NCBI GenBank assembly: GCA_035358715.1
Contig: DAOPPX010000001.1
Location: 18,412 to 82,411, forward strand
Direction of reading: 5' to 3'
Source: Verrucomicrobiota bacterium
GTDB taxonomy: Bacteria; Verrucomicrobiota; Verrucomicrobiia; Limisphaerales; UBA8199
DNA length: 64,000 bases
Shown: positions 20,039-60,358 of the stretch, one piece after another
Numbering within the stretch: position 1 is the stretch's first letter
Layout: the number at the start of each line of letters is the position of its first letter
Translations under genes and position numbers: made by a program
The notes under the pieces: model-generated
The model's database searches: none
Seen by the model: only the letters and a program-made list of their open reading frames with translations
What the model was told of the DNA's origin: nothing

Positions 20039-20049
20039 TGCAGAAACTG

Positions 20050-28154: not shown

Positions 28155-28177
28155 GATGTCCGACTCAGAGAACTCCT

Positions 28178-40540: not shown

Positions 40541-40609
40541 TGGAACAGAGGTTGCCTTGGATTATCGGAGTACAATCCGATGAGACTTGGTCCGAAAGTT
40601 TCGGGGTTA

Positions 40610-43430: not shown

Positions 43431-43494
43431 GCTGTTGTGTTTGGCGGTTGAATCCCGGCTGAAAGCCTGTTGCGGGGCAGGCCACAAGCAGGCT

Positions 43495-44314: not shown

Positions 44315-44647
44315 TCAGGAGTTCATGCAGAACTGCGCGAGTCTGACAATGGCGTTCAAGGCGGCCAACGGCACGTTGTAGATGAAGAAGGCAACGACGG
44401 CGGATATTATGGAGACGAACAGCACCAGACCCGATGCCGTGTCGGTGGTGAAATGCGGATCCCTGGCCCAGTGGTAAAACGGCAGAAGCATCTGAACGGC
44501 AAAGAACCCAAAGAACAGGACACGCAACGTCTCCAGGCTCACCATCTCCGTCACGGGACATCCGGGCGCATACCAGCCGGCATACCGCTCGACCAGAAAG
44601 GTCGAGAGCGTCAGCGTAGAGAGAAATGCGAAGAGCGGCCGGTTCAT
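44315..44647 (-). CDS. small membrane protein (about 3 TM segments)
   Basis: 110 aa from ATG 44647. Hydrophobic stretches LFAFLSTLTLSTFLV, VLFFGFFAVQMLLPF, LVLFVSIISAVVAFFIY. ATGA overlap with the upstream gene. Confidence 0.6.
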   Translation of the reverse strand: MNRPLFAFLSTLTLSTFLVERYAGWYAPGCPVTEMVSLETLRVLFFGFFAVQMLLPFYHWARDPHFTTDTASGLVLFVSIISAVVAFFIYNVPLAALNAIVRLAQFCMNS

Positions 44648-46050
44648 GCGCGATTCCGCAGCATTGGCTTCGGTGTGGGTAGTTGTGGTGGGGAGGGAGC
44701 GCATTGGTCCTGCACCGTTTCCTGGATTTGTCGGAGGACCGCTTCGTAAGACGATTCGTCGGTCTGGATATTCTCGAGCAAACGCAGAATGAGGTAAAGC
44801 CGCCAACCGGTGAGGCCCGCCTTTTCGGCGCAATCCAGGACGGCCTCTCCCTTCGGCGTGATAGTGATTGTGCCGGCCCCTTGGCGCAAGTAACCGCAAT
44901 GGATGAGTTGGAGGATGGAGGCAAAATCCAGGTTGAGCTGACAGCCTTCCAACCTACCGAGGAACGTCTGAAGAGTGTTGTCAGGGAGCAGCGGGTCGAT
45001 AGTAACCTGGATTTGAGCTTTGGCAGGAAGCGGATTGATAGCGGGCTGCCCCTCGGGATAATAGCTTTGGCTTCGGAACCTGAGGTGATCCTGCTGATAG
45101 ATTCTGACGACCTTGCGGCTGGGTCTCGAGGGTGCCAGATGCTGGAGCAAACCTGTGGGGCGGGAGAGGATTCGAACTGGTTGCTCACCGTAATTGACGC
45201 CGCCGTAACTGAAAGGCCAACTGCCGGCGCCCGAGAAATATGCCTGTTCCATCTCTTCCATGCATTTCTCCAGACGCTCCTTGCTATTCCAGAGCAGCCG
45301 ATTTACGGCAAAGCGCCGATCCGGCCATTCGGCCGGGGCTTCCTTATGGGTGACTGCGAAACCTCCCTTCACGTGTCTGGGATAACGGCAGTGATAAACG
45401 GTTCCGCCAAAGGGGTCGATTTCAACCGCGGTGCAAGTTCCGAAACGCAAGTGCCTTGTCCAGGATGGCTTTGAAATCGCGCGTGCGAGGTGCAGGTAGA
45501 ACAAACTCTGCCAACCGGTCCAGGCCAACCCACGTTCGCGCAAGGCCGTGACCACCTGCATCCGCACCAGGTGTTCAGTCAGGGAGCGCGCTGCCACAGA
45601 GGTGAGGAGCCAGGGATTAATAGCCTCGGCACCCTTGATCGCTCTGGCGATGCCGTCCGGGCTTAGGTCTTGCAGGGGCGCGTAGAGGAGGACGGCGCCG
45701 TTCTGAATCGTGTGCGCCAGATGCAGCATCAGGTTGCCCTCGCTCAAGCCCGGCGGAATTGCGCAAACGACTTCCCCGCGGAGTTCGCGCAGGGCTTTCT
45801 GCGCTTCGGGGTTCAGGACTCGGAATTGTGGCTCAAGATCCTCGTTGAAGCCGGGGTCCGCCAGGTCGATAAATCGCGCGTCTATCTCCAGAACCGGAGT
45901 GGGCACACAACGCCTGATGGCGTCCGCTACTTGTTTACGTCCTGTTACGATGGTTGCGGCCGGGCTCATCTTTCTTCCTGTCAGGAACTGCGGAACGCAC
46001 CTTGAAGGCCGAAGTTGGCCATCGAGGAGGCTGAAATCCGCCGTCTGCAC
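44644..46050 (-). CDS. hypothetical protein with remote type IA topoisomerase-like features
   Basis: 468 aa (GTG 46050; ATG 45969 is an alternative). Segments AARSLTEHLVRMQVVTAL, GWQSLFYLHLARAI and ASILQLIHCGYLRQGAGTITITPKGEAVL are collinear with topo IA motifs as I recall them. Toprim acidic residues are not evident. Low-confidence assignment. Confidence 0.6.
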   Translation of the reverse strand: MQTADFSLLDGQLRPSRCVPQFLTGRKMSPAATIVTGRKQVADAIRRCVPTPVLEIDARFIDLADPGFNEDLEPQFRVLNPEAQKALRELRGEVVCAIPPGLSEGNLMLHLAHTIQNGAVLLYAPLQDLSPDGIARAIKGAEAINPWLLTSVAARSLTEHLVRMQVVTALRERGLAWTGWQSLFYLHLARAISKPSWTRHLRFGTCTAVEIDPFGGTVYHCRYPRHVKGGFAVTHKEAPAEWPDRRFAVNRLLWNSKERLEKCMEEMEQAYFSGAGSWPFSYGGVNYGEQPVRILSRPTGLLQHLAPSRPSRKVVRIYQQDHLRFRSQSYYPEGQPAINPLPAKAQIQVTIDPLLPDNTLQTFLGRLEGCQLNLDFASILQLIHCGYLRQGAGTITITPKGEAVLDCAEKAGLTGWRLYLILRLLENIQTDESSYEAVLRQIQETVQDQCAPSPPQLPTPKPMLRNRA

Positions 46051-46164
46051 CGGGTCCAGCCGCGCGTACTGCCATCCCGTTTAACAAAACATGGCCGTTG
46101 AGCAGGTTGCATCCGCATACGTATCCATTTTAGGGCTCTTGGAATGGGAGGCCTGTTCACCGGT

Positions 46165-46575
46165 TCACGCTGCGAGAGCGAACCGGGCTTTTTCACGCGA
46201 GCGGGTTTCCTCGTAGTCCGGCTCGTTTTGCATCGCCAAAGCATCAATACAGGCGTTTTCGTTGTCAGCGACCCACCGCTCGGCGGTGGTTTCGAGCGAG
46301 GTGTCAATCTTGTGCCGCAGGCGACGTACGGCCTTTCGGAACTTCTTGCGGCTCAGACCGGGCCGGCGCTGGCGCAGGGCAATTTCAATATCGCCCGGTT
46401 CGGAGAATGCGGTGGACAACCGGATGTCATCCCAGCCCCAGTCATGGTGAACACCTCGAGCGCCCCAGTACTCAAAAGCGCCTATTCCGTGGTCCGCATA
46501 TTCACCGGAAACCTCGATCTCAACGGTGATTTCCATCCCGGCGATTTCGACCACAGCGGCTAGCGTTGCCAACAT
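46165..46575 (-). CDS. hypothetical protein
   Basis: 136 aa from ATG 46575. The track ORF to 46719 overlaps the ATPase gene. Confidence 0.5.
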   Translation of the reverse strand: MLATLAAVVEIAGMEITVEIEVSGEYADHGIGAFEYWGARGVHHDWGWDDIRLSTAFSEPGDIEIALRQRRPGLSRKKFRKAVRRLRHKIDTSLETTAERWVADNENACIDALAMQNEPDYEETRSREKARFALAA

Positions 46576-46609
46576 GCCTTTTGTTTGGCCGCATTGGTCA
46601 CGAACGGCT

Positions 46610-48217
46610 TTAGTCTTCCAAGGCGTGGACTTCCGAGAACGAAGCCTTTCCCTCCAGCCATAACAGGAGAGCATGTTCGAGGATCGTCTTGAATCCGGCT
46701 TCTTTGGCCTTCCGGACAATATCGAGGATGGAACAATCGGTCCCCATCAGTTCGCGAACCTCGTCAGTTGGGCTGAAGAAGCTGTAAACCGCGGTGCGGC
46801 CGATAGTGCCGACACCGTTGCAGCGGGAACAGCCTCGCTTTTCATACACGGAATGCCCTGGCGGACAGGGGATTTCCAGCTCTGCGAGCAGGTCCAATTC
46901 ATGCTTCTTAACTTCCCGCCTGATTTTGCAAGACGGACAGAGGACCCCAACCAACCGTTGCGCTACGACCAACCGGATGAGCGTCTGGAGTTGATAGCGA
47001 TCCACCCCCAGCCGATCGAGACGATTCAAGGTTTCAATGGCGTTGTTTGTATGCAACGTGGTGAACACAAGATGTCCGGTTTCAGCGGCGGCTACCGCAA
47101 GCCTGGCAGTCTCTTCGTCGCGGACTTCGCCGACCAACAGGATGTCCGGGTCCTGCCGAAGGCACGAGCGGATCGCGTTTGGAAACGTGATGCCTTTGTC
47201 GGGCTCGATCTGGATTTGGGAGAACCCGCGAATCCTGTATTCCACGGGGTCTTCAATGGTTATTATCTTCACTTCCGGCGAATTGAGATGCTGCAGCACC
47301 GTATAGAGCGTAGTGGTTTTGCCTGAACCGGTAGGGCCCGTGACGATGATGAGTCCGCTTGTCTTGCTGATGCTGTCGAGCAGTTCCCGGTGATATGCCG
47401 GCGGCAGGCTCAATTCTTCCAGCGTCCGGTCAATGCTTTTGAAATCCAAAAGCCGCATCACCACGGATTCGCCGTCTACGGTGGGCGAGACCTCCACGCG
47501 CAGGTCCAAGGTCTTGCCGTGCGGCAAAGCCAGGCGCACCCGGCTGGATTGAAAGCTGCCGACGCTGCTGGCCAGGAGCCGGGCCTCCAGCTTCAGGGCC
47601 TTGAGGACGTCTTCGCCGGCGCGCAAGGCCAGCTTGCGCTGGACCAACAGGTCCCCATGCACCCGGAAACGGATGCGCAGGCAGCCCTCGGTGGGCTCCA
47701 GGTGGATGTCGCTGGCCCGCATCAAATCGGCGCGACGGACGACTTCATGGAAGATCTGCCCGGGCTCCACGTTGTCCCAGGCTGCGTTTGGGAAGAAGAC
47801 CGACGGTTCTGAAGCCTCAGCTTCTCGAGGCGTTTGGGACTGGCAGTGGCTCAGATTTCCCAGCAGTTCGTCATAATTGCGCTGGGTGATGAGAATCCGC
47901 TTTACCCCCAGCTCGAACTCCTGCAACAACTCTTGCAGGCGCTTTTCATCCCATGGCTCGCACTCGGTGACAACCAGGACGTCCGGGAACAACCGGAGCG
48001 GGACTTGTCCGTTGCGGACAAAGAAGGACTGGTGCCGGTGAAAAACCTCCACCTGGACATCGGCCATGCTGATACGCCGGTAGGGCAAGTCGTAGGCGTG
48101 AGCCGCAACGGTGTAGAATTGTTCCTCCGACCAGCTTCGGATTGGCCCGAGGCAGCGGGCGGCTGGATGGCCTTGGAGTCTCTCTATCGCTTCCTGGGGA
48201 GCGTTGATAAGGTTCAT
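46610..48217 (-). CDS. PilB/GspE-class secretion-superfamily ATPase
   Basis: 535 aa. Walker A GPTGSGKTTT, DPDILLVGEVRDEETA, His box TGHLVFTTLHTN, tetracysteine CPSCK...CSRCNG. N-terminal T2SSE_N-like region. Confidence 0.9.
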   Translation of the reverse strand: MNLINAPQEAIERLQGHPAARCLGPIRSWSEEQFYTVAAHAYDLPYRRISMADVQVEVFHRHQSFFVRNGQVPLRLFPDVLVVTECEPWDEKRLQELLQEFELGVKRILITQRNYDELLGNLSHCQSQTPREAEASEPSVFFPNAAWDNVEPGQIFHEVVRRADLMRASDIHLEPTEGCLRIRFRVHGDLLVQRKLALRAGEDVLKALKLEARLLASSVGSFQSSRVRLALPHGKTLDLRVEVSPTVDGESVVMRLLDFKSIDRTLEELSLPPAYHRELLDSISKTSGLIIVTGPTGSGKTTTLYTVLQHLNSPEVKIITIEDPVEYRIRGFSQIQIEPDKGITFPNAIRSCLRQDPDILLVGEVRDEETARLAVAAAETGHLVFTTLHTNNAIETLNRLDRLGVDRYQLQTLIRLVVAQRLVGVLCPSCKIRREVKKHELDLLAELEIPCPPGHSVYEKRGCSRCNGVGTIGRTAVYSFFSPTDEVRELMGTDCSILDIVRKAKEAGFKTILEHALLLWLEGKASFSEVHALED

Positions 48218-48227
48218 ACCGCGTCTC

Positions 48228-48698
48228 TCAATGGCTGGCTGCCGCCCTCAACCGCTGGTGAAGCCTGGTGTAATCCGAGGGCGAAACCGGCACCAGGCAA
48301 ACGCGCAACTCTGCGGGAACGCTGTGCAGGATTTCTTTGAGTTCAGGAAACTCAGGGTCGTAACGCAGCAGTCCCAGATAGAAGGTTTGGCAGGAGAGGC
48401 CCAGCGTGAGAATCCCCTCGCTCAGGCAACGAGTGACGATCGTGGGCAGGAGTTCTTGCAGTTCCGCCAGTTCCCGTTCATCGAGGGTGCCGAGGGGGAT
48501 GTAGTGAAATCGGTCCTGTTGCAGCGCCTGGTTCAGCCAAACTTCACAATCGAACATTTGGGAATTGCGAACCAGCAACTCCCCGACATCCACCTGGTTT
48601 TGGTTCGCGCGCATCCGTTCGAGTTGGTCAATGGTAACCAACCCGCTGCTCAGGAGGTACTTTATCCAGGCTTGATCGCTTTGGCGGCGGGTGAACAT
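48228..48698 (-). CDS. free-standing T2SSE_N (GspE/PilB N-terminal)-like domain protein
   Basis: 156 aa. LLSSGLVTIDQLERMRANQ...VGELLV...IPLG...LLPTIVTRCLSEGILTLGL fits the domain pattern. Ends 10 nt before the ATPase start. Confidence 0.6.
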   Translation of the reverse strand: MFTRRQSDQAWIKYLLSSGLVTIDQLERMRANQNQVDVGELLVRNSQMFDCEVWLNQALQQDRFHYIPLGTLDERELAELQELLPTIVTRCLSEGILTLGLSCQTFYLGLLRYDPEFPELKEILHSVPAELRVCLVPVSPSDYTRLHQRLRAAASH

Positions 48699-48713
48699 GC
48701 GCCTCGGAAGCGT

Positions 48714-50735
48714 TTAAGCGGTCACAGGCTCCGGCTTTCTCGCGTGATCGTTCCCGCGGCCTAGGAAATTGGCGCGGTGTTTCCGATGCTGGGCTTGCAT
48801 TTGCAGGAACTCAGGCGAGCCCTCCAGCGCGCGGCGAGCCAGATCATGAAACCGATTAGGTTGCCGGGCGCAAAGATGAAGCAACTCGTTGAAAGGCGGG
48901 AGCAGCGCCGATTCGAACAACTCGGGTTTGTTGCACCTGAGCCACTCCAGGACTTTCAGGGGCTGTGTCCGGTTGGCAATGAACTTGTTCTTCTGCGCAA
49001 GGTAGTCGGAGTAATCGGGGTCAAACAGCCAGACGGCTTCGTAAGCCTGGCCGGCGTAACGGCCGCTTTGGAAGAGGCCGCGGAGCCGATAGACGTATTT
49101 CAGGAAATCGAGCTTTTGCAGGAGGCAGGCCGCTTGGGCTTCTGAGAGGCGCCCCAGCGCGGTTGTGGGGACCTGGTAATCGCGCAACCGGTCCGTTTGC
49201 GCTTCAGTCGCGGGCCCATCGCATTCTAGATGGCTGCTGAGTTGCTCAAGTTCCGGTTGCGTCAACTGCGGCCGCAGAAGGGCCGTCGCATCAAGCAGAG
49301 CTTCCTGCTTTTTGCTCCCCAACCTCATGCGGGCTGGTCCGTAGGAATAGTGCCAAGCCCCCAGGTCGTCCCGATCGAGGCGCGCTACGCGGTTCTCGCG
49401 CACGTTTACGACGCAGGCGAAGTTGTCGTTGAGCGGCATCCAAGCCAGGCAAGTGGAAGTGTCCGGCTGAATAGTTTGCGCGAGATGGAAGAAATCCGGC
49501 GGCTCCAAAAGCTGCCGGATGTCCTGCGCGGTGAATTCGCCCGCGACGTTCCACTCCACCTCCGGGTGATACAACTTGGCTTTTTCTAGGGTGCGCTGCA
49601 TCTGGCGGATGTTCTCCCCGGTAAGCCGAAGGTTTTCCGGCAGGCAGAAGAGCTTGGGCAGGGTGATGACGTCCTGCGAGCGGATATCCACTAGGTCCAT
49701 GACCAGGCAATCTCGCTTGGAGGGGTGGAGGCGCAAACCGCGCCCGATCTGCTGCGGATAGGTTACCGGCGACCGAGTGGGGCGGCCAATGATTATGCAG
49801 GACGTATGTGGCGCGTCGTAGCCTTCGGTCAAAGTTTGGCAGTTGGTCAGAATCCGCAGTCGCCCCTGCTGGTAATCCTCCAGGATTTGCCGGCGCTCCT
49901 CCTTCTTTTGCTCGCCGAATACGGCCTGGGCCGCGAGACCCCGCTTGCGAAACTCTGCGGCGAGGTGTTCGGCGTGCCGGACATTGGCCACGAATACGAT
50001 GGCGGGGCGGTTTTCGCCGCGCTCAAGATAGCTTTGAACGATCACGCGGTTGCGGGCTTCCGTATCAATGGCCGCAGCCAATTTGTCGGGATCGTAATCG
50101 CCTTCGGCGGTCACGGGCACGCCAGCGATGGACGCATTGGTGCGGATCGTCAGGCCGCGGATGGGGCAAAGGTAGCCGGCGTCAATGAGCTCCGGCATGT
50201 CGATTCTATAAGCCAGCCGCTCGAAAAGAATTGAGAGGTTCTCTCCATCCATCCGTATGGGTGTGGCCGTGATACCCAAAAGGTGGCGAGCGGGATTCTG
50301 CGTGGAGATTTCATGGAGCAGCTCGGCGTACGTGTTGGCTGTGGAATGATGGCATTCATCGATAATCACCAACGAGATGTTTTTCAGGGGACACCACCGG
50401 GCGATGCGCTCGATCTTCTTGACGGTGGCAATGGAGGCCACCATGACCTTGGCGTTTGCCGGGCAGGTGTTCCTTCCCTGCTCAATCCCGGCGACGATCT
50501 GGTCGTCGATCATCGCCAGTTTTTGCAACGTCTGTTCCAGCAACTCCTCCCGATGCGCCAGGAACAGGACGCGTTTGTCAGGGTTGCCCAGATGGAGCTT
50601 CATAATGACGGAGGCGATGATGGTCTTCCCAGCCCCAACCGCCGCCACCAGCAGCAGGTTCAACACCTTTCTCTCCCATAGAGCGAAGCAGCATTTCACC
50701 GCTTCACCTTGGTAAGGTCGCAATTGCACGTTCAT
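48714..50735 (-). CDS. SF2 DEAH-box helicase (type III restriction res-like) with long C-terminal extension
   Basis: 673 aa from ATG 50735 (GTG 50765 is possible). LRPYQ, AAVGAGKT, IIDECHHS, ITATP, TEGYDAP, QQIGRGLR. About 260-aa C-terminal region unassigned. Confidence 0.9.
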   Translation of the reverse strand: MNVQLRPYQGEAVKCCFALWERKVLNLLLVAAVGAGKTIIASVIMKLHLGNPDKRVLFLAHREELLEQTLQKLAMIDDQIVAGIEQGRNTCPANAKVMVASIATVKKIERIARWCPLKNISLVIIDECHHSTANTYAELLHEISTQNPARHLLGITATPIRMDGENLSILFERLAYRIDMPELIDAGYLCPIRGLTIRTNASIAGVPVTAEGDYDPDKLAAAIDTEARNRVIVQSYLERGENRPAIVFVANVRHAEHLAAEFRKRGLAAQAVFGEQKKEERRQILEDYQQGRLRILTNCQTLTEGYDAPHTSCIIIGRPTRSPVTYPQQIGRGLRLHPSKRDCLVMDLVDIRSQDVITLPKLFCLPENLRLTGENIRQMQRTLEKAKLYHPEVEWNVAGEFTAQDIRQLLEPPDFFHLAQTIQPDTSTCLAWMPLNDNFACVVNVRENRVARLDRDDLGAWHYSYGPARMRLGSKKQEALLDATALLRPQLTQPELEQLSSHLECDGPATEAQTDRLRDYQVPTTALGRLSEAQAACLLQKLDFLKYVYRLRGLFQSGRYAGQAYEAVWLFDPDYSDYLAQKNKFIANRTQPLKVLEWLRCNKPELFESALLPPFNELLHLCARQPNRFHDLARRALEGSPEFLQMQAQHRKHRANFLGRGNDHARKPEPVTA

Positions 50736-50835
50736 CGGTGGCACCACCCGAAACACGGGGTGCACCCCCCATTATAGGTGCGAAAAGCGGGCATCGATGG
50801 GAACCGCCTCCGAATGGCCGACAAACTTCCTGTTC

Positions 50836-52194: not shown

Positions 52195-52238
52195 GGTTGC
52201 TTGAGGGCGAGTTGAGCCTGCGGCCGTTTGGACCGCAA

Positions 52239-52667
52239 TCACGGCTTCCGGCGAAGCTTCCTCGGCCCGGGCCACATAATCCTCGGTTCGATGATGCTCC
52301 CGCCAGCATCAATTCGGAACCGGCCGCCTCCGTGGCTGCCGGGACAATGCCGACTGCAGGTATTGGCGTAGCCAAATTCCAGGTATTCCTTGCCCTGTTT
52401 GCAGAGCAGCGCTGCCAGGGCCTTCAGAAATGTCTCCGGAATCTGGTCCAGGTCCACGTAGTCCGCGCCGAATATGTACACCTCGCCGCTCCGCCGGTCA
52501 TAATCGATGGAAAGACAGCAGCCTGGGTGGGTCGCGCGCAACCCGCTGCCATCGCCGATTTCCTCTGGTTTTTGATCGCCAATCAAAGCCTTGATGAGTG
52601 CGCCGGCTTCTCCCGGGGAACATTTGACTGCCTCCTGGGCTGTAATGTCGGTGAAATAATCGGGCAT
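52239..52667 (-). CDS. hypothetical protein
   Basis: 142-aa ATG ORF. Confidence 0.55.
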   Translation of the reverse strand: MPDYFTDITAQEAVKCSPGEAGALIKALIGDQKPEEIGDGSGLRATHPGCCLSIDYDRRSGEVYIFGADYVDLDQIPETFLKALAALLCKQGKEYLEFGYANTCSRHCPGSHGGGRFRIDAGGSIIEPRIMWPGPRKLRRKP

Positions 52668-52695
52668 GCTTTGAAGTCCGGCCCGGTTCTGCCGG

Positions 52696-53244
52696 TCAGC
52701 GGTGTACTTCCACCAGTCTCAAGGGCTTCGAATTAAGCAGGTCTGCTGGCTCAAAACGATAGCCGTATCGATTCTCGCCTTCCTCGGTGAGGAAGCCTTG
52801 AGCCTGCGACTCTAAGGATGCTGGCTCTGTCTTCTGGATTCGAGCGCCGACGCCATCATCCCCTGCTCCTGTTTCCTTCGCCCTTTCAGCGGAGGCGTCA
52901 AATTGTCCTTTGCGAAGCAGGGCCGAGTTTTCGCGAATGAAATCAGGCAAACGAGGATCGTTCTCCAACGCGAACCGTTCATAGTGATTGAGTTCATTCC
53001 AACGTTTCGGACGGTAAGTGTAATAGCCCAGGCTGTCGTTGTAGTGCAGCCGGTAAGGGAGTTGGGGTGGTTTGTTCAGGTCAGCTCCCAAGGTGATATC
53101 CGTTTTCCAAGCCGGATTCCCGTCCGCGAACCGGCCGATGAAGCAGTCGTAAACGGACTCCAACGAACCGTTTTCTGCGAGCGTCGGGAACGCGCCCATC
53201 ACCAGCAGAGGTAGGATAGTAAATATCTTTCTCACATCCTCCAT
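52696..53244 (-). CDS. secreted hypothetical protein
   Basis: 182 aa from ATG 53244. Signal-peptide-like MEDVRKIFTILPLLVMGAFPTLA. Confidence 0.6.
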   Translation of the reverse strand: MEDVRKIFTILPLLVMGAFPTLAENGSLESVYDCFIGRFADGNPAWKTDITLGADLNKPPQLPYRLHYNDSLGYYTYRPKRWNELNHYERFALENDPRLPDFIRENSALLRKGQFDASAERAKETGAGDDGVGARIQKTEPASLESQAQGFLTEEGENRYGYRFEPADLLNSKPLRLVEVHR

Positions 53245-53387
53245 TATAGGGCGGCCATCCCTGTTCCGGGTTGGAGGTGATATCGAAACTGCGGTCGTCC
53301 CTACTGTCTGTAAAATTCGACGAAGGATCAGGATCAGCCTATTCTTTGGCGTCGTTTGACCTGCGGCCCCGTTTGGCCGTTTCAATA

Positions 53388-53416
53388 GGGAGGCTTCTGA
53401 AGTTCAGAAGCCTCCC
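53388..53416 (-). terminator. strong hairpin just downstream of the 415-aa gene
   Basis: gggaggcttctg (53388-53399) pairs perfectly with cagaagcctccc (53405-53416), with a 5-nt loop. It begins 21 nt after the stop at 53437. The trailing U-tract on the minus strand is weak (TATTGAAA). Confidence 0.4.
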
Positions 53417-53436
53417 CATCTGTTTGGCAATCCCAA

Positions 53437-54684
53437 TCACGCTGCGAGCGCGAGGGTCTTCAGGACGTCCGGCGTGAATTCGGCCACCGCGTTGATAGTG
53501 GCAGGGCTAACCAGAGAACGGGCAATCAGCTTGCGGACCACCTCCTCGCCCACATCCTTGAATTTCGGCCCGAGTTTCTGCACGAAGGCCACATAGACCT
53601 GGTCGCCCGCGCTAATCTCGGTTGGCTCTGCCGCCGGTACCGGCAGCCTGGTCACAGTGGCGGCGGTTGGAGTGCCGTTGTGTCCCGGAGTGGTGCTGCC
53701 GGCAGCGGCCGTAGCAGGTCCATTCGCCGCCCCATTGGCACCCTGGGCCGGTTGAGGGGCTGCGGTCGAGATGGGCCGCGTCCGGCGCCCATTGCCGTTG
53801 AGGGCGTTGGCGATGGCTTTTTCGGCGTGCGGCCAGAGTTCTGACGGCAGGAACGTTTTGATGAGATCGATCTGCTGGTCAATGGTGTGCCGAACCAGGC
53901 TTTCCCGGAGGTTGGGAGCGTTGCGAAGTTGCTCGGCGTACTCCGGCCGCGGGACGAACTTTTTGCCGCCGGACCGGTCCTCGAACCTGCCCAACGGCAT
54001 GGGCCGATCGACGGGAGTAAAGGTGGCGGTGACGCCAATGGTGCCGGCGTTGGAAAGACTGCACTTGATCAACCGCCCATCCACCGGATCGAAGATGGAG
54101 CCCCACCGCAGAGAGCCGTTCGCCTTGGGATTCATGGGATCGATGGTCTTCTCGCTGGGCAAGTTGATGAGCGCATCGCCCCAGGAAGGGCGGTAAGGTT
54201 TTCCCTTGCGCGGCGGACGGCCCAGAGTGACCTGAGCGATGCCGAATGGGCCCAGGTTATTTTCGAACTTGGCAGCCACCAGCAGCGCCCGGCGCTGCTC
54301 ATCGAACCGGAAGCCCTCGGGGTTGTCCATGGTCCACATGTAAGGTTTGGTTTCCGGGTTTTGGTACAGGTAAATCTGCACGATGCGGAACAGGTTGGGT
54401 TGCCCGAAGAGTTCCTGGTGAATGACGCGGGCCACTTTGTCCCCAAAGTGCATCTTGTAGAAGCCCACGGCGATGTACCAAGGGCTCTTGTAGGGATTGA
54501 TAAAACGCACCCAGTTGTCGCCCTCGGCCAAGGTGATGCGAGGGACGTTGCTCTTGATGAGGTCGCTGACCACTTTGGTGGTCTGGTTCGGATTGCTCTG
54601 GGTTGCCGCCTCTTCCGCGCTGGTCGCGCCGTACATGTCGGCCAAATCGCTAGGTTCGGGTGTCGGTGTGCCGTTGCTATTCAT
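53437..54684 (-). CDS. hypothetical protein with Ala/Pro/Gly/Thr-rich linker
   Basis: 415 aa from ATG 54684. Globular ~300-aa N-domain, low-complexity linker AAPQPAQGANGAANGPATAAAGSTTPGHNGTPTAA, ~70-aa C-domain. Confidence 0.65.
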   Translation of the reverse strand: MNSNGTPTPEPSDLADMYGATSAEEAATQSNPNQTTKVVSDLIKSNVPRITLAEGDNWVRFINPYKSPWYIAVGFYKMHFGDKVARVIHQELFGQPNLFRIVQIYLYQNPETKPYMWTMDNPEGFRFDEQRRALLVAAKFENNLGPFGIAQVTLGRPPRKGKPYRPSWGDALINLPSEKTIDPMNPKANGSLRWGSIFDPVDGRLIKCSLSNAGTIGVTATFTPVDRPMPLGRFEDRSGGKKFVPRPEYAEQLRNAPNLRESLVRHTIDQQIDLIKTFLPSELWPHAEKAIANALNGNGRRTRPISTAAPQPAQGANGAANGPATAAAGSTTPGHNGTPTAATVTRLPVPAAEPTEISAGDQVYVAFVQKLGPKFKDVGEEVVRKLIARSLVSPATINAVAEFTPDVLKTLALAA

Positions 54685-54782
54685 AAACAGATGCGCTTTT
54701 GATCTCTGTTTGGCGGCATTTTCGTCAGCATGCACTTCCTTCCATTCTAGGCCACTTCAGCGCGGTCAAATGCTTCCGGGCC

Positions 54783-56261
54783 TCATTGTTCCGGGAAAGT
54801 GCCCAGTTCCGGCAGAAGCGGCGCCTGTTCGAAGGGCAGATGCTCAACGATTTCCCGCGAGAACATGTAGCTGACCGGCCACCCCAGCTTGTTCGCGTTC
54901 TGCAGCTTGGCGACGCCCAGGTTGAACAGGCGCTCGGACGCCATGCAGAGCAGCATCACGTAGATCCCCCGGCCCCGGTTTTCGGCGCTGGGAATCCCGT
55001 GTCGCCCGGTTTGAAACATGAAGGCGGACAGCGTCTTGCTGGAGCAATCGATGATGTAATCCACATCCCGGACATCAATGGCCTCTCCATTGAGAGCAGC
55101 GCACAGCACGCGGCGTATTTCTCCTGCACCCAGGCGCTGGAGAATGTCCTGGAGGCATTCAGGGTTTTGACGGCCGTGGACAAAGGTGTATTGGGGCAAT
55201 TGCCGGTGGAGGATTATTCCAAGCCGCAGGGTGTCTGTCAGAATCAGCGCCGTCGCGGCTTCCGGGAGTTTATCGTTGATTCCCATCAGGGTTGCGCCTA
55301 ATGCGGGGTTTTTCAGATAGGCCGCGCGCACCATCTGGCCCACGGACAACCCTTCAGTGAGCGGCCGCGGTGTCAGGAGCGGAAACACGCAAACCCGCAG
55401 AGGGCCGACATTGTTATCCCCCTGCGCCGCCCCAGCCTCTAGCGGGTCTCGGCATTTATTGGTGAACAAGGTCGGGCCGAAGATTACGGAATTGAGCTGG
55501 TGCGAGTTGTCTGCCCGGACCGGTGTGGCGGTCAATCCCCAACAATAGGTGGTCCGGAACTGGCTCAGGAAGGGAATGTGCCCAGGCTCAGGAAGCCGGT
55601 GGACTTGGTCGCAGATCCAGGCGTCGAACTTGCGCAGGGCGTGGCCGCAATAAGCCATTTCCCCTTGGACGAAATCCTTCAATGCATCTAAGTGGGTGAC
55701 GATGATCCGGCCCGCCTCAGAGCGCGGAGTTGCGTGGATGCCTATCGTCTCTCCGGACAGAGCGTTGGCCAGGGCGGCATGAATCTTCTCGACCGCCGGT
55801 TTCTCATCGGTGGTGACCAGGACCTTGAAGTGCCCGGGCAGCAGGCGCGCCAGCCCACAGAGAATCTGAACAGTGCCAATCTCGGCAGGCACTACCAGCA
55901 ACCCGGAGGAGCGGGCTTGCGCCACAGCCTGCACCGCCTGGCAGCAGACCGCCGGATAATCGGTCAGGTTGAGCCGGGTGAGATCCAGCGGCGGAAAGAG
56001 CCGCTCATCCCTGATTTCAAGTGCCAGGTGAAGTTTCTCGGCCGCCGCTTGCACCAGGTGCAGCGCATTGGGATAAGTGCGGCAGGTCTTTGTCTGGGCG
56101 TCATAGTCAGCATAGGAAACCTGCTCGGGTGTCGTTTTGAGGTTTCCGTGGTCAAAAAAGAGGTTCTGCCGCGCATAGACCAGGGCGTCCGCCAACGCCG
56201 GCGGACAGTCCCGCAGGGTCAGCGAACTCCGCGTCACTGTGACTGGAATGCTGCCGCTCAT
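54783..56261 (-). CDS. SF2 helicase-fold protein with ablated ATPase motifs (pseudo-helicase)
   Basis: 492 aa from ATG 56261, with ATGA overlap to the UvrD stop. PAEIGTVQ replaces P-loop PTGSGKT, DQVH replaces DExH. GLTATPVR and FQTGRHG are retained. Confidence 0.7.
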   Translation of the reverse strand: MSGSIPVTVTRSSLTLRDCPPALADALVYARQNLFFDHGNLKTTPEQVSYADYDAQTKTCRTYPNALHLVQAAAEKLHLALEIRDERLFPPLDLTRLNLTDYPAVCCQAVQAVAQARSSGLLVVPAEIGTVQILCGLARLLPGHFKVLVTTDEKPAVEKIHAALANALSGETIGIHATPRSEAGRIIVTHLDALKDFVQGEMAYCGHALRKFDAWICDQVHRLPEPGHIPFLSQFRTTYCWGLTATPVRADNSHQLNSVIFGPTLFTNKCRDPLEAGAAQGDNNVGPLRVCVFPLLTPRPLTEGLSVGQMVRAAYLKNPALGATLMGINDKLPEAATALILTDTLRLGIILHRQLPQYTFVHGRQNPECLQDILQRLGAGEIRRVLCAALNGEAIDVRDVDYIIDCSSKTLSAFMFQTGRHGIPSAENRGRGIYVMLLCMASERLFNLGVAKLQNANKLGWPVSYMFSREIVEHLPFEQAPLLPELGTFPEQ

Positions 56262-58378
56262 GCAGGCAGCGGTTCTGCCTCCGGTTTGACGCCGAGTGCT
56301 GGCGGGACCGTCGCCGGGACTGCCGGGAAGGTGATCGAGTAGTTTTTCACCCGGTGCGGATTGACCGAGTAGAAGGGATCGTGTCCCGGATCCCTGATCT
56401 TCTGAAGAAAACCGGCCGTCTTTGGGTCGTCGGCGAACCTGCTGATATTGCCCCGGACATGGAATTCGCCGGACTGGTAGTTGTGCGCACTGGTCAGGTA
56501 GAGGTATTTCCGGGCGCGCGAACAGGCGACATAGAATAGCCGGCGTTCTTCTTCGATCTGGTTGCGCTCCAGGCCAAATCCGGGCGAGGGAAAGACCTGC
56601 TCGGTGTTGCCAATGACGAACACGGAAGTCCACTCCAACCCCTTGGCCGAATGAATGGTGGAAATGGTCAACCCTCGAGAAATCTCCTTTTGATCGCGGC
56701 TGGTCACCAACTCGCTGATAAAGTCCTTCACCAGGCCGATGTAACTGGTCGAGAGCTCGATGATGTAGCTTTGGATGTCGCCAAGGTGGTCCTCCATGCG
56801 GTCGGGCAGTTGCGAGGCGCTCTTGACCTTGATCATGCGCGGGGAGACGTGGAAATACCGGGCGTATATGTTGCGAAAGCTGGGCAGCACCGCGTTGAGG
56901 TAATCCTTGACCGGCCCCTTTGGAACCTGCGCGGCGGCAAGCATATCACGCCAGAAATTCATCAGGCTCTCGAATCGTTTTCCGCGCCCCAGAGAGAACA
57001 CCGGCGGCCGCTCCCAACTCCAGCCGTTCTGGCCGGCCTGGAGGTCGCGGATGATGACCTGAGTGAGATGCTGGCCAATGTTGGGGATGGCCGGGAGCAA
57101 CACCTCCCACGCCAGCCAGTCGTTGGCGTTCTCCAGCAGTTCAAGAAACGAGACGAAGAACTGGATGTGCTGTAAATCGACGAATTTGATGCCGCCCTCC
57201 CGGGTGTAAAGCACGCCCTGGCGCTGTAAGTGGCGCTCCAGATCGCCGGCGATGTGTCCGACCCGGGTCAGCACCGCGATTTCCTCCGGCGGCACCTGCT
57301 GGTTTCTGACCAACTCTTCGATTTCGTTCGCGACCCAGTCGGCCTCCTGCGTCCCTTTCATGAACACGGCGCGTTTGGGTTTGACCTCGCATTGCGGCCC
57401 GCGGCTCACGAGGGTTTTGGCCAGGGCGCCTTCGCAGGTGGCGTTGATCGCATTGAGGTAGTCCACCAATGGCTGGCTGCTGCGGTAGTTTTCATTGAGC
57501 ACCACCGACTCCGCGCCGGGAAAATCCCGGGCAAAGTTGCGGATATTCTCCACCTGCGAACCCTGGAAGGAGTAGATGGACTGGGTGTCATCGCCCACCA
57601 CAGTCAGGAAAGAGTCCGGGGTAATCAACTGCTGCAAGATGGCGACCTGAACGCGATTGGTGTCCTGATATTCGTCAACATAGATATGCGGAAACTGAAA
57701 TTGGATAATTTGGCGGACCTCCTCGTATTCCTGGAGCGCACGCATGAAATTGTAAAGGAGGTCGTTGAAGTCGAAGACCCGGTATTGCTCCTTTAGCGCT
57801 CCGTACGCTCTGGAGGCGGCCTGGGCGATTTCCGTGAGTTCCCCTTCCAGTTTCCGGACGTCCTCCGACGCGCCCGCGAGAAACCTGATCTGCAGATTCA
57901 GCTTGTTCCTGCGCTCATATAGCTCCAGCAGATCCGGCCCTTGCAGCCGATGGGCTCGCAGCAATGCGGCCACTTCCGGATGGGCGGCGGTGTACTGGCC
58001 GAATGCCTCCTTGCGCAAACGATTGGCGTGATGCTCCGGCAGCACCTTGTAAGGCGGCAGAATCCCCTTGGGGCAGAGTTCCTGTTGGGTCAACCGGTAG
58101 CAGAGACTGTGGAAGGTGCCACTGCGGATATCGGCCTGGAGGGAAAGCTTGCCCCGGATGCGCCGGCTCATGTTGCTGGCCGCCCTGTTGGTGTAGGTGA
58201 ACATGAGAACCTGGGAAGCTGGCAACTCTTTCTCCTCGATAAAGTGCGCAATCCGCTCCGTCAGGGCCTCGGTCTTGCCGGTCCCGGGTCCCGCCAGGAT
58301 GAGCAGGCGCAGGCTCGGGCTGGTGACAGCCGCCATCTGGGCAGCGTTGAGTTCCATATTTGCGATGTTGTTCGGCAA
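56258..58378 (-). CDS. UvrD/PcrA/Rep-type SF1 helicase
   Basis: 706 aa (TTG 58378; ATG 58357 is an alternative). AGPGTGKT, YVDEYQDTN, TIHSAKGLEW, FYVACSRARKYLYL. Confidence 0.9.
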   Translation of the reverse strand: MPNNIANMELNAAQMAAVTSPSLRLLILAGPGTGKTEALTERIAHFIEEKELPASQVLMFTYTNRAASNMSRRIRGKLSLQADIRSGTFHSLCYRLTQQELCPKGILPPYKVLPEHHANRLRKEAFGQYTAAHPEVAALLRAHRLQGPDLLELYERRNKLNLQIRFLAGASEDVRKLEGELTEIAQAASRAYGALKEQYRVFDFNDLLYNFMRALQEYEEVRQIIQFQFPHIYVDEYQDTNRVQVAILQQLITPDSFLTVVGDDTQSIYSFQGSQVENIRNFARDFPGAESVVLNENYRSSQPLVDYLNAINATCEGALAKTLVSRGPQCEVKPKRAVFMKGTQEADWVANEIEELVRNQQVPPEEIAVLTRVGHIAGDLERHLQRQGVLYTREGGIKFVDLQHIQFFVSFLELLENANDWLAWEVLLPAIPNIGQHLTQVIIRDLQAGQNGWSWERPPVFSLGRGKRFESLMNFWRDMLAAAQVPKGPVKDYLNAVLPSFRNIYARYFHVSPRMIKVKSASQLPDRMEDHLGDIQSYIIELSTSYIGLVKDFISELVTSRDQKEISRGLTISTIHSAKGLEWTSVFVIGNTEQVFPSPGFGLERNQIEEERRLFYVACSRARKYLYLTSAHNYQSGEFHVRGNISRFADDPKTAGFLQKIRDPGHDPFYSVNPHRVKNYSITFPAVPATVPPALGVKPEAEPLPA

Positions 58379-58382
58379 GAAT

Positions 58383-59378
58383 TCAGCCGGCGGATGGCGT
58401 TTGGGCTTGGGCGTAGAATTCGATCCATTCGGTCCACCACGGATTGGTGTTCTTCCGGCGGATGCGCTCCACCAGTTGCCCCGCGTCTGGCGGTTTCAAA
58501 TCCGCCAGGTACTGCACGGTCCAGGGGGCACTTTCCAAGAGCTTCTCCACCAGCACATCCCGTGGGCCGCGCCGTACCCACTTGAGCCAGTTGTAGCACC
58601 AGACCGGGCTCTCCAGGATGCTCTTGAGCAGAGGCTCGCAGTCGGCCCCCGGATACTCCAGCGCGGTCAGGAAGGCGTACCAGGCGTTGGTGCCAAGGGT
58701 CTCCAGGTGGCCAACGATTTTGGCCGCGCGCTCCTCTTGGGAAAGGTGTTGGGTTTTGAGCCAGTGATGGCAGTGAGCGCAGCCGGCGTCGTGGTTCTTC
58801 AGACTGACGATAACGGCAAGAATTCGGCGAAAGAACCCGTCGGTGAACTTGCGCTTGAGCCAGCGGATGGACCAGTGCGGGCTGTGGAGCAGGAGCATCT
58901 GCTCCATTTGCTGGGTCGTGATGATGTCTCCGCTGGAGGACTGAAAGGATGCGGGCGAGCCTCCGCGCGCCCGAGCCTCCTGGTCCTTTACCAGCAGGTG
59001 ATAGATGTATTCCGGGTTCGATTGCAAGATGTCCAGGAGCGATTTCTCCTCCTGCGGGTTCTGCTGGTAGGCATGAAAAGCCAGGTAGGCGTGTTCGAAG
59101 AGAATCGCAGCGCAGTCAACCGGCAGTTCAAACTCGTCGCCCACGCGGAACAGCACGATAGGCATCGCGCTCAAGGCCTGCTTGAAGTCCTCCGGCATGA
59201 AATAGTCGGGCGCTTCTTTCGCTTTGATGGCGTGCCGGCGTAATTCGTTCTTGAGCCTGGCGATGTAATCCTCCAGGCGCCGCGCCGCCTGCGCATCAGG
59301 CGTCCCGCCCTGGATGCCGAAAAATGCCAAGGGAATTTTCAGGATGTGCGGAGCGCCATCCAGGGCATCAGCGGGCAT
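58383..59378 (-). CDS. hypothetical helical protein
   Basis: 331-aa ATG ORF. Overlaps the upstream stop by 11 nt and ends 4 nt before the UvrD gene. Confidence 0.6.
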   Translation of the reverse strand: MPADALDGAPHILKIPLAFFGIQGGTPDAQAARRLEDYIARLKNELRRHAIKAKEAPDYFMPEDFKQALSAMPIVLFRVGDEFELPVDCAAILFEHAYLAFHAYQQNPQEEKSLLDILQSNPEYIYHLLVKDQEARARGGSPASFQSSSGDIITTQQMEQMLLLHSPHWSIRWLKRKFTDGFFRRILAVIVSLKNHDAGCAHCHHWLKTQHLSQEERAAKIVGHLETLGTNAWYAFLTALEYPGADCEPLLKSILESPVWCYNWLKWVRRGPRDVLVEKLLESAPWTVQYLADLKPPDAGQLVERIRRKNTNPWWTEWIEFYAQAQTPSAG

Positions 59379-60231
59379 AACTCTTGCGCGTTGAGTTCTT
59401 CAACAGCGGCTCATAAGCGCTGTAGAGCTGGCTGCACTGATCGAACCCGTGAATGACGATCAGCGTGTGTTCACCCCGGCTGGAATCCTGCTGGTCGCAC
59501 GGATAAGTGCCGACGAAAGCCACTGCCTGGCCGGTGCGGTTGTTAAAAGCCATAAGCACCTGGGAGCGGATGGGCATGGGGGCTTCCCACAGTTCGGTGA
59601 ATCGGTACTGGCGTAGCGGCGACTGGGGATCCGCCAGTTGGGATTTGCCGTCCTCGCCGAACCCGAGCACCACACTGACCTTGGCAATCTGGGAGAGCGC
59701 ACTCAGATACTCGACGATTTCTTTCTTGGCGAGTTGGTGGCCGAGGAAGAGGCAATGGTCGGGCTTGAGATCGTCCACCTCCTTCAACATGTGCGCAGTG
59801 ATCTCTGCGCTCTTCCAACCGCCCAAGGCCTCGCCCGCGATGATCTCAATCGGGCCGGGCGAGTTGCGGGCGATGATTTCCTCAAGGTTGGCAGCGATGT
59901 ACTGCTGCGATAGAGAGAACAGCACGCTCGCCAGGAGGATTCCCCAAAGCAATATCCATAACCAATAAAGGGGTGCCCTGGCCTTGGCGGCGACACCTGG
60001 TGAATTCTCGTTGCCGTGCTTGATCGCTTCCAGCTCAGCTACGGCCTCTTCCAAGGCGGCACTTTGGCTGTGGACCAACGCCTCCTTGAGTTTTCGGTAG
60101 GAAGGATGGTCCTCTCCCACCCATTTGAATCTCGCGAGCAGGTCGTCGCCACTGCGGGTGCCGGCGGGGGATTGTGAAGGAGGCCGGGCGGCTTCCGCCG
60201 GGGCGACGGTTTCTCGTGTGTCCTCTGGCAT
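59368..60231 (-). CDS. membrane-anchored hypothetical protein
   Basis: 287-aa ATG ORF. Disordered N-terminus, one TM (LYWLWILLWGILLASVLFSL), ~170-aa C-terminal domain unassigned. First gene after the divergent gap. Confidence 0.6.
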   Translation of the reverse strand: MPEDTRETVAPAEAARPPSQSPAGTRSGDDLLARFKWVGEDHPSYRKLKEALVHSQSAALEEAVAELEAIKHGNENSPGVAAKARAPLYWLWILLWGILLASVLFSLSQQYIAANLEEIIARNSPGPIEIIAGEALGGWKSAEITAHMLKEVDDLKPDHCLFLGHQLAKKEIVEYLSALSQIAKVSVVLGFGEDGKSQLADPQSPLRQYRFTELWEAPMPIRSQVLMAFNNRTGQAVAFVGTYPCDQQDSSRGEHTLIVIHGFDQCSQLYSAYEPLLKNSTRKSYAR

Positions 60232-60358
60232 GGTTGCTCATTGCCCATCAAAGGGTCCATGCCATTATAGGGCAGTGAAGGCCGGCAACGGTCTGAACTA
60301 CAGGCGCCAAGAGCCTGAGCACATCCATGCGGCCCTAAAATGGAATGTGAAAGTGAAT

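Follow-up and report, generated by a model that had tools for sequence, protein, structure and literature searches.

A conserved gene block of Verrucomicrobiota that joins a PilB/GspE-class ATPase and envelope proteins to helicases and a gp32-type fold

Integrative and conjugative elements (ICEs) and genomic islands, such as the PAPI-1/ICEclc family and the gonococcal genetic island, carry sets of genes for a single-stranded DNA (ssDNA)-binding protein (SSB), TopB, a helicase, and a PilQ/VirB11-type ATPase. A gene block that invites comparison with these DNA-processing sets is found in a 64,000-nucleotide stretch of DNA from a Verrucomicrobiota bacterium (assembly GCA_035358715.1, contig DAOPPX010000001.1, positions 18,412 to 82,411 of the forward strand), referred to below as the window. 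The block likewise combines a candidate SSB, a type IA topoisomerase (topo-IA) fold, helicases, an ATPase of the T2SSE family, and membrane proteins. However, it lacks a relaxase, VirB4, a coupling protein, an integrase, and Par genes, its candidate SSB is of the gp32 type and not an OB-fold Ssb, its topoisomerase-like protein lacks the metal site, and its flanks are chromosomal housekeeping genes.

The block, which comprises 10 to 16 genes, is a conserved, clade-restricted unit that joins a PilB/GspE-class ATPase and envelope proteins to helicases of superfamilies 1 and 2 (SF1 and SF2) and to a gp32-type fold; many lineages add a topo-IA fold. It contains the defining set of no known system, and the nearest analogies are conceptual only. 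From these parts we infer an envelope-anchored, ATP-driven machine that would process ssDNA. It may serve to intercept and neutralize DNA entering through the envelope, as a new multigene system against phages, plasmids, and other mobile genetic elements that would, in some lineages, be coupled to DNA modification genes; this role, the most likely of those considered, is proposed tentatively and short of an even chance.

An earlier note on the window had reported 14 co-directional minus-strand genes running from 60231 to 44315. All 14 open reading frames (ORFs) are confirmed at these positions, and the same genes appear in independent calls on the source contigs. The unit exceeds that first description: the divergent gene g0 belongs to it, and so, probably, does g15. 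The ORF of g0 can be read from 60125; its orthologues begin with MKVN, which corresponds to the GTG at 60347. The genes are as follows.

60347..62692, plus strand: g0, conserved orphan of ~780 amino acids with no transmembrane (TM) segment, divergent from g1
59368..60231, minus strand: g1, bitopic membrane protein
58383..59378, minus strand: g2, helical orphan of 331 amino acids with Trp-rich repeats, overlapping g1 by 11 nucleotides
56258..58357, minus strand: g3, intact SF1A helicase of the UvrD/PcrA/Rep class
54783..56261, minus strand: g4, SF2 protein of the DExH type, a pseudohelicase here, with an ATGA overlap with g3
53437..54684, minus strand: g5, candidate ssDNA-binding protein with a gp32-type core
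52696..53244, minus strand: g6, secreted or periplasmic protein with a Sec-like signal
52239..52667, minus strand: g7, accessory orphan of 142 amino acids
50836..52194, minus strand: g8, compact SF1 (UvrD-like) protein
48714..50735, minus strand: g9, intact DEAH SF2 helicase with a RadD-like core and a C-terminal region of ~300 amino acids, facultative
48228..48698, minus strand: g10, partner protein of 156 amino acids, always directly before g11
46610..48217, minus strand: g11, hexameric secretion ATPase of the PilB/GspE class
46165..46575, minus strand: g12, orphan of 136 amino acids in a variable slot after g11
44644..45969, minus strand: g13, compact topo-IA fold
44315..44647, minus strand: g14, small membrane protein of 110 amino acids, translationally coupled to g13 by an ATGA overlap
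43495..43884, minus strand: g15, orphan of 129 amino acids after g14

Related loci (numbered with an L below) were collected from homologues of g5, look-ups of their contigs, one GTDB scan, and one metagenome scan. This gave 49 usable loci from metagenomes or metagenome-assembled genomes (MAGs), with g5 proteins 40 to 100% identical to that of the window. In all of these loci, down to 40% g5 identity, tblastn mapping gives a single gene order: g0 on the opposite strand, then g1, g2, g3, g4, g5, optional xA and xB, g6, optional g7, g8, optional g9, g10, g11, an optional g12, YfhO-like, or DndC-like gene, and the optional set g13, g14, and g15. The recurrence of the same order in 49 loci puts the arrangement far beyond chance. 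The PilB-like ATPase and the helicase and pseudohelicase genes are thus conserved as a block, which is what the earlier note had proposed to check across genomes.

Genes g1 to g4 are found in all 20 loci that have at least 6 kb of upstream DNA, and g6, g8, g10, and g11 in all 18 that have at least 9 kb downstream of g5. The order g8-g9-g10-g11 is kept even in the 52%-identical outlier L016. Gene g0 is present in 12 of the 17 loci with enough upstream DNA, the other five belonging to one subclade; in L007, L009, L011, and L012, its orthologues are 42 to 69% identical and have the same position and orientation. In the subclade, an unrelated gene for a membrane sensor-like protein of 886 to 939 amino acids with an HPt-like C terminus lies upstream of g1, where g0 is found in other loci (around positions 1400 to 4200 in L018, L020, L021, and L029). 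In the close relative L018, g0 is detected beyond this gene, which there lies between g0 and g1. The block is therefore one functional unit with a core of g0, g1, g2, g3, g4, g5, g6, g8, g10, and g11.

The remaining genes, namely g7, g9, g12 to g15, xA and xB, and those for the YfhO-like and DndC-like proteins, are lineage-specific add-ons. Variant A, the type seen in the window, adds g7, g9, and g12 to g15. Variant B adds two small TM proteins, xA and xB, between g5 and g6, and an 11-TM YfhO-like protein directly after g11. Gene g9 is found in 12 of the 18 loci and g7 in 8, all of variant A; g7 is missing from L009 and from every variant B locus. The slot of g12 is taken in other lineages by the YfhO-like protein or by a DndC-like protein of 794 amino acids. 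Genes g13 and g14 co-occur in L009, L017, L021, L023, L029, and L031, and g13 is absent from the variant B loci of the L007 type. Insertions in relatives fall at fixed slots (L018, 11537 to 12547; L020, 11506 to 13194; L032, 10485 to 11594): the g5-g6 spacer receives a HEAT-repeat or TnpB-like gene, and a radical SAM gene is found after g11. Homologues of g15 follow g14 in L009 (68%) and L031 (77%), and g15 is probably the end of the variant A block. The window also encodes, on the minus strand at 40076 to 41401, a 263-residue protein with a C-terminal zinc ribbon and a 154-residue protein, homologues of which lie directly after g15 in L031 and L009, respectively; the variant A block may extend past g15. 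The exact proteins are found on metagenome or MAG contigs of 196 to 661 kb labeled Verrucomicrobiota at NCBI. The block is carried on chromosomes of a narrow, uncultured clade of this phylum.

The best-conserved gene of the block is g11. Its product matches the Pfam T2SSE family (E value, 1e-101), aligns end to end with the PilB model, and has the full T2SSE core of the PilB/GspE/ComGA ATPases; both Walker motifs, the Asp box, the His box, and the tetracysteine Zn motif are all visible, in agreement with the first description. It differs from these ATPases in scoring below both equivalog cut-offs of NCBIfam (PilB, 371 bits versus 676; GspE, 359 bits versus 630; the ComGA score is 234 bits), in belonging to a separate clade, and in being preceded by g10 and embedded among helicases. 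Full-length relatives of the module type score at least 823 bits with at least 67% identity, and there is one intermediate at 52%; canonical full-length GspE and PilB proteins reach ~300 bits and at most 45% identity. By these scores, g11 represents a discrete clade between PilB and GspE. Its N-terminal domain gives an E value of 0.048 against MshEN, which is below significance.

The usual companions of such an ATPase were not found. Pfam finds no T2SSF platform protein (PilC/GspF) among the module proteins or the scanned ORFs of the window; of the related loci, only L012 has a T2SSF gene nearby. The prepilin motif G[FYMW][ST][LM][ILVP]E[LIVMA] does not occur in any of the six frames of the window, and the secretin family is missing from the Pfam scans of the module and its context as well as from the gene tables of the related loci. 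The locus is thus not a pilus or type II secretion locus, as the earlier note had maintained.

The small protein g10 precedes g11 in all 18 loci, and the pair is kept in the outlier L016. The earlier note had read g10 as a free-standing T2SSE_N domain. Pfam searches with seven orthologues and a PDB profile search gave no match, and hhalign aligns residues 11 to 150 with residues 6 to 140 of canonical GspE/PilB at an E value of 0.005 but a probability of 7%. The alignment is consistent with g10 being, possibly, a diverged T2SSE_N/MshEN-like domain. A link between a secretion-superfamily ATPase and a DEAH-box helicase is also found in the actinobacterial helicase/secretion neighborhood (TIGR03819), where a TadA-family ATPase lies beside a DEAH helicase. 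However, g11 scores only 60.6 bits with that model (cut-off, 373), it is of the PilB/GspE and not the TadA class, and the block has no TadB/C or TadE-like genes.

Such an ATPase among DNA-processing proteins could also belong to a clade-specific apparatus for DNA uptake or export, similar to competence or conjugation systems. Here, g11 and the membrane proteins would move ssDNA over the inner membrane, the helicases would pull or unwind it (compare ComFA, PcrA, and TraI), g5 would protect the strand (compare SsbB), and g13 would act on topology or as a clamp. This would account for a PilB/GspE/ComGA-class ATPase being the best-conserved component, for the presence among the core genes of the envelope-exposed g1 and g6, for the combination of an SSB fold, helicases, and a topo-IA fold, and for the vertical-looking pattern described below (base composition and adjacency to infC). 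Moreover, an SSB, TopB, a helicase, and a T2SSE-family ATPase travel together in the transfer modules of ICEs and genomic islands. However, neither the block nor its Pfam-annotated flanks show a ComEC- or ComEA-like channel, a pilin, a secretin, DprA, a relaxase, VirB4, or a coupling protein, the membrane parts of variant A are minimal (g1 with one TM segment and the 110-residue g14), and the T2SSF gene is confined to the vicinity of L012. We consider such an apparatus rather unlikely.

The four helicase-like proteins comprise intact and decayed members of both superfamilies, as the first description had it. The intact UvrD helicase, g3, has complete SF1A domains in Pfam (UvrD-helicase, 2e-60; UvrD_C, 5e-40) and is 61 to 82% identical across loci. 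Its NCBIfam scores of 253 to 297 bits (297 for PcrA, cut-off 911) fall far short of the equivalog cut-offs of 911 to 1144; by its sequence, g3 belongs to the SF1A helicases but is probably orthologous to none of UvrD, PcrA, and Rep. It matches the GajB models of the Gabija system as any UvrD protein does, and GajA has no match in the module. The intact DEAH helicase, g9, matches ResIII (9e-28) and scores 178 bits with the NCBIfam model for RadD (cut-off, 720). The second SF1 protein, g8, shows a weak match to the UvrD N-terminal domain, with TGKT and ADNVHD in the window. Across loci, its Walker A motif is an invariant TGK[T/S], and its Walker B motif reads D-[N/D]-x-[H/Q]-D, without the catalytic Glu. 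An active SF1A helicase paired with an SF1-like protein that keeps Walker A but not the catalytic Glu recalls AddAB and RecBCD, with g8 in the place of AddB or RecC. However, no nuclease domains are detected in the block and g8 is much smaller, and the likeness is one of design only.

The SF2 protein g4 has weak Pfam matches to ResIII and Helicase_C. In the window, its motifs read AEIGTV, DQVH, and QTGRHGIP, where relatives have GVGKT and DEVH for the first two; the P-loop lysine is indeed missing here. This lysine is lost in 12 of the 14 loci with g9 and kept, together with an intact DExH box, in every locus without g9; L010 and L011 retain it although g9 is present. The loss spans at least two lineages (variant A and L052) and so appears to have arisen more than once. 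From this compensatory pattern of residues, it would seem that the ATPase role of g4 can pass to g9, with g4 staying as a structural subunit. The decay of g4 looks like repeated formation of a pseudoenzyme after the gain of a paralogous motor.

In g5, a low-complexity linker joins a gp32-type core to a small helical domain at the C terminus, which is conserved. Structure models of g5 and g13 were made with AlphaFold2. The best Foldseek match of the g5 model in the PDB is the core of T4 gp32 (1gpc; E value, 0.011; probability, 0.93), with RB69 gp32 at rank 7, the TM-scores being only 0.3 to 0.4. In the BFVD database, phage SSBs account for three of the named top 10 matches, including the best overall (2.8e-6). 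The Pfam gp32 model (PF08804) does not match g5, one distant relative giving a faint match (E value, 0.05), and the zinc site of gp32 is not evident, with one conserved Cys in the alignment (A1). Judged from its modeled fold, g5 is a candidate ssDNA-binding protein of the gp32 type.

The topo-IA assignment of g13 stands, whereas its reported length of 468 amino acids does not: the ATG at 45969 is the most likely start and yields 441 residues. The AlphaFold2 model (mean predicted local distance difference test score [pLDDT], 76.8; predicted template modeling score, 0.76) has 53 Foldseek matches in the PDB below 1e-3, and among the matches listed all are topoisomerase I, topoisomerase III, or reverse gyrase. 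The best is 2gai (1.5e-16; TM-score, 0.55 normalized to the query), and a profile search matches Thermotoga maritima topoisomerase I at an E value of 0.005. In an hhalign alignment with Escherichia coli TopA, P72, G74, and S76 stand at D111, D113, and E115, and T6 at E9, and these residues are kept in 21 homologues. The Toprim DxDxE motif is thus replaced by PPGLS. As g13 lacks the Toprim acidic residues, it is probably not catalytic. At the expected position of the Tyr in the ITY motif, assigned by eye only, there is an invariant W251.

A gp32-type SSB fold encoded with SF1 and SF2 helicases is also seen in phage T4, which has gp32, Dda (SF1), and UvsW (SF2). However, g5 has no Pfam gp32 match or evident zinc site, and the block lacks a polymerase, clamp, and primase, is chromosomal, and includes envelope proteins. 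By bringing together an SF2 helicase, a topo-IA fold, and an SSB fold, the block also recalls helicase plus topo-IA machines such as RecQ-TopoIII-SSB and reverse gyrase, and reverse gyrases are among the Foldseek matches of g13. In the block, the proteins are separate, the Toprim DxDxE is replaced, and g13 is missing from some variants.

These likenesses raise the alternative that the block is a domesticated viral or mobile module for replication, recombination, or repair in the cytoplasm, acting, for example, on stalled forks or recombination intermediates, with g11 taken over as a soluble hexameric motor that the membrane proteins would only tether. Such an origin would agree with gp32-type SSBs being a phage hallmark, with the strong PHROG matches of g3 (3.5e-96), g9 (3e-92), and g11 (5e-82), with stable residence on the chromosome, and with the way in which helicase, topo-IA fold, and SSB echo the logic of the dissolvasome and reverse gyrase. 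However, no polymerase, primase, recombinase, nuclease, or integrase was found, and g13 lacks the Toprim acidic residues and is itself lacking in L007-type variant B loci. A secreted g6 and a g1 with a predicted periplasmic domain are hard to explain as core genes of purely cytoplasmic repair. This explanation appears quite unlikely.

The envelope proteins agree with the first description. In g1, a conserved cytoplasmic helix is followed by a single TM segment (residues 90 to 108) and a conserved C-terminal domain of ~180 residues (12-sequence alignment A11), which is predicted to be periplasmic. The g6 protein begins with a Sec-like signal; its N-terminal domain and a C-terminal motif are conserved, and the linker is variable. 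A signal peptide is found in xA as well, and g14 is hydrophobic. The proteins g0, g1, g2, g6, g7, g12, and g14 have no match in Pfam, NCBIfam, PHROGs, or PADLOC, and xA, xB, and the YfhO-like protein have none in PHROGs or PADLOC. PDB profile searches with g0, g1, g2, g5, g6, and g10 gave no credible match.

In the machine proposed here, a hexamer of g11 and its small partner g10 would dock on the membrane proteins of the module itself instead of a PilC/GspF platform. The candidates for docking are the bitopic g1 together with g14 or with xA/xB and the YfhO-like protein. Facing outward would be the secreted g6 and the domain of g1 that is predicted to be periplasmic. On the cytoplasmic side, the active SF1A helicase g3 would pair with the noncatalytic SF1-like g8, and one active SF2 helicase, g4 or, where g4 has decayed, g9, would unwind DNA. 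The gp32-type g5 would coat single strands, and g13, with its topo-IA fold devoid of metal-binding residues, might clamp ssDNA without necessarily cutting it. The earlier note had seen a DNA- or RNA-translocating assembly with envelope components. Envelope components and nucleic acid-handling parts are both present, and they may translocate DNA or RNA. The block might represent an undescribed class of machine, a PilB/GspE ATPase detached from pili and secretion, with membrane and periplasmic partners of its own and coupled to an assembly of helicases, gp32-type SSB, and pseudotopoisomerase that works on DNA as it crosses or touches the inner membrane; we regard this as somewhat doubtful.

A defense role, which the earlier note had also considered, draws on the genomic context. 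To the left of the block lie Wadjet JetABCD genes with a BrxR/WYL regulator (seen in L015, in the left flank outside the window), a GmrSD/SspE-like DUF262 pair, a DEDDh exonuclease matching PDC-S48, a PDC-S10-like metallophosphoesterase, and IetA-like AAA ATPases. To the right (L014, outside the window) are a pair of Hsp70-like (793 residues) and UvrD-like (413 residues) proteins, a DUF932 protein, an AAA_12/DUF559/MTES_1575 protein, and a homologue of DruA. A mad2-like methyltransferase (MTase) and a PP-loop protein weakly similar to SspD are encoded next to g15, ~0.8 kb beyond g14. The whole neighborhood is a defense island, and defense-type neighbors also occur elsewhere: AbiEi/Eii in L049, a YhcG nuclease in L051, and IS66 with DruA in L017. 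In L011, the DndC-like protein of 794 residues (18478 to 20862; PP-loop domain, PADLOC 6e-32) is encoded between g11 and g13, overlapping the start of g13, and in L052 a class V aminotransferase (Aminotran_5, a family that includes cysteine desulfurases; 19453 to 20688) follows g11. Through these genes, the block may be connected with DNA sulfur modification in some lineages. The island context and the turnover of accessory genes at fixed slots are the reasons for favoring defense.

Like Dpd, Dnd/Ssp, DISARM, Druantia, Zorya, and Gabija, the block is multigenic, helicase dense, and located in a defense island, and DndC- or SspD-like and MTase genes are attached to it in some lineages; as in Zorya, a membrane part is joined to cytoplasmic helicases. 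However, no module protein matches GajA, DrmB/C, DruB to DruE, ZorA/B, or DpdA, and the homologue of DruA is not part of the block. The core modification genes of the Dnd, Ssp, and Dpd systems (DndACDE, SspABCD, and DpdA/B/C) are not constant in the block, the DndC-like gene being found only in L011 and the Aminotran_5 gene only in L052. The earlier note had listed Gabija, Hachiman, DISARM, Druantia, Zorya, Dpd, and Wadjet as systems that the gene content does not match; by the PADLOC searches, the block matches no known defense system.

Several observations weigh against a role in defense and against the machine drawn for it. Among the 5,027 PADLOC models, the module proteins match only generic helicase models, and no nuclease, toxin, or other effector domain is recognized in the block. 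The distribution is very narrow: g5 is found in 1 of 185,579 GTDB species representatives, and its family comprises only 19 representative clusters among 1.84 billion proteins. The base composition of the module tracks that of the host (47 to 61% G+C), and L011 and L012 share the infC-g0 junction while their IF3 proteins are only 47% identical. Composition and junction together point to long, largely vertical residence. Vertical inheritance of a cellular machine fits the G+C content, infC, and the fabF, efp, and ndk flanks better than a mobile defense island does, and the narrow, vertical-looking distribution and the lack of a recognized effector weaken the case for defense. On the structural side, the g5 model, built from a 20-sequence alignment, has low confidence (pLDDT 59, with 70 to 90 in the core), and the catalytic Tyr of g13 was not located, as the alignments, including that with TopA, cover only residues 14 to 157. 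Seven proteins (g0, g1, g2, g6, g7, g12, and g14) have no assignable fold, and the contact of g11 with the membrane proteins is a supposition of the model.

The flanks bear as well on the proposal that the block is part of a huge phage, a megaplasmid, or an integrated conjugative element, that is, a replication or transfer region of the kind the earlier note had envisaged. The window is rich in orphans, with only ~8 of the Pfam-scanned context ORFs giving a match, and the source contigs measure 196 to 661 kb. Furthermore, infC next to g0 (L011, 1163 to 1666; L012, 1436 to 1954) is not followed by rpmI-rplT. In most bacteria it is, and huge phages are known to carry additional copies of IF3 and EF-P. 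However, the module proteins and the Pfam-annotated 10-kb flanks of the window, L007, L009 to L012, and L017 contain no VirB4, VirD4 or other coupling protein, relaxase, integrase, or capsid gene, and terminase and portal genes are absent from every annotated locus. A megablast search with the 16-kb block against 50,697 phage and 72,556 plasmid records gave no DNA match, scanning IMG/VR with g11 and with g5 turned up no relatives, and tblastn against phage genomes found no homologue of g5 and, for g11, only generic GspE-like genes with at most 41% identity. There are no tRNA genes in the window or in six related loci, and no candidate attachment site is found nearby; an Rfam scan of the window gave no match. 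The flanks elsewhere include infC, ndk, and RNase H (L011), T2SSF and infC (L012), efp (L007), fabF and a GT4 glycosyltransferase (L048), glycoside hydrolases (L017), and a lipase. With no structural or transfer genes, ordinary metabolic flanks, and a G+C content that tracks the host, an origin in a huge phage or megaplasmid was rejected as the main explanation, and membership in any such replicon is highly improbable. The probability left by defense and the alternatives above falls to roles of other kinds.

The layout of the block points to several transcription units. The earlier note had described a single coupled module, with gaps mostly under 100 nucleotides. Four spacers instead measure 98 to 195 nucleotides, ~190 between g5 and g6 and between g12 and g13 and ~100 between g4 and g5 and between g8 and g9. 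The 11-nucleotide overlap of g1 and g2 is real, and of the three ATGA overlaps reported, two (g3/g4 and g13/g14) are found when starts supported by orthologues and gene calls are used. The hairpin noted after g5 is present, with a stem of 13 and not 12 bp. The control features are as follows.

60232..60346: divergent control region between g1 and g0, with two CTAnAATGG (-10-like) motifs, at 60262-60270 (minus strand) toward g1 and at 60335-60343 (plus strand) toward g0
54742..54750, minus strand: -10-like motif CTAGAATGG upstream of g5
53388..53416, minus strand: hairpin after g5, with a perfect 13-bp stem and a 3-nucleotide loop, 21 nucleotides past the g5 stop codon
53241-53249: CTATAATGG motif overlapping the start of g6
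50769-50777: CTATAATGG motif upstream of g9
46125-46133: CTAAAATGG motif upstream of g13

CTAnAATGG occurs seven times in the 64-kb window, compared with 0.69 copies expected. Six copies lie in intergenic regions of the module, oriented toward g0, g1, g5, g6, g9, and g13, and the seventh is at 39312-39320. The same junctions in relatives show TAnAAT[G/A]G, and a TATAAT element before g1 is kept in five diverged loci. The motif may act as a strong -10-type promoter element, or it may be a regulatory site specific to the module; a simple sigma-70 and terminator scan performed no better than on shuffled sequence. Its presence in each of the longer spacers argues for several similarly signaled transcription units and against one coupled operon. 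The hairpin is likely a partial terminator or an mRNA stabilizer that sets g5 apart, and with a -10-like motif of its own and this trailing hairpin, g5 may be expressed separately from its neighbors, as might be expected for a coat-type protein.

Other parts of the window show further genes of interest. On the minus strand at 41677 to 43547, an N6-adenine-type MTase (NPPF motif; PADLOC mad2, 9e-19) overlaps a PP-loop-like protein of 339 residues (SspD, 4e-4). The pair is inserted between g15 and the gene for the 263-residue protein relative to L031; the two genes were considered as core components and rejected, being an insertion relative to both L031 and L009. A tight set of four plus-strand genes at 4702 to 7899 encodes a DUF1802 protein, an AAA ATPase, a metallophosphoesterase (PDC-S10, 9e-14), and a DEDDh/RNase_T exonuclease (PDC-S48, 2.5e-22) and may be a defense operon. 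It is followed, on the plus strand at 7916 to 12213, by a pair of neighboring genes for DUF262/GmrSD_N proteins (SspE/Orf5-like), where the G+C content drops to 50% (58 to 60% in the window), which suggests a recently acquired type IV restriction-like pair. The minus-strand region from 1320 to 4592 encodes a WGR domain protein, an orphan of 149 residues, and an IetA-like AAA ATPase (539 residues), to which the source gene calls add a DUF2997 protein. A second AAA ATPase, IetA/TRIP13-like and of 602 residues, lies among orphans at 26532 to 28340 (minus strand). Finally, the plus-strand gene at 30910 to 35664 encodes a secreted protein of 1,584 residues with Ig-like repeats, including several near-identical units of ~190 residues that resemble autotransporter-associated beta-strand repeats; its C-terminal tail is presumably of the kind common in Verrucomicrobiota.

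Literature searches found no description of such a cluster, and the system appears to be new, its recognizable individual parts being known folds. Should it be a working system, it would represent a new use of the PilB/GspE motor family, with no filament or secretin and tied to enzymes of ssDNA, a cellular, nonviral home for a gp32-type SSB, and a conserved topo-IA fold that has lost its metal-binding residues. If the proposed machine is real, it would establish a new principle for envelope-coupled defense or DNA transport, in which the pseudoenzymes g4, g8, and g13 serve as structural or sensor subunits. With its loss of the g4 P-loop in the presence of g9, the block provides a clean natural experiment in pseudoenzyme evolution. 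To our knowledge, defense and DNA traffic have been little studied in the phylum Verrucomicrobiota, and the block, at 16 to 19 kb, is a tractable cloning target for what may be a new antiphage mechanism or a new route of DNA traffic.

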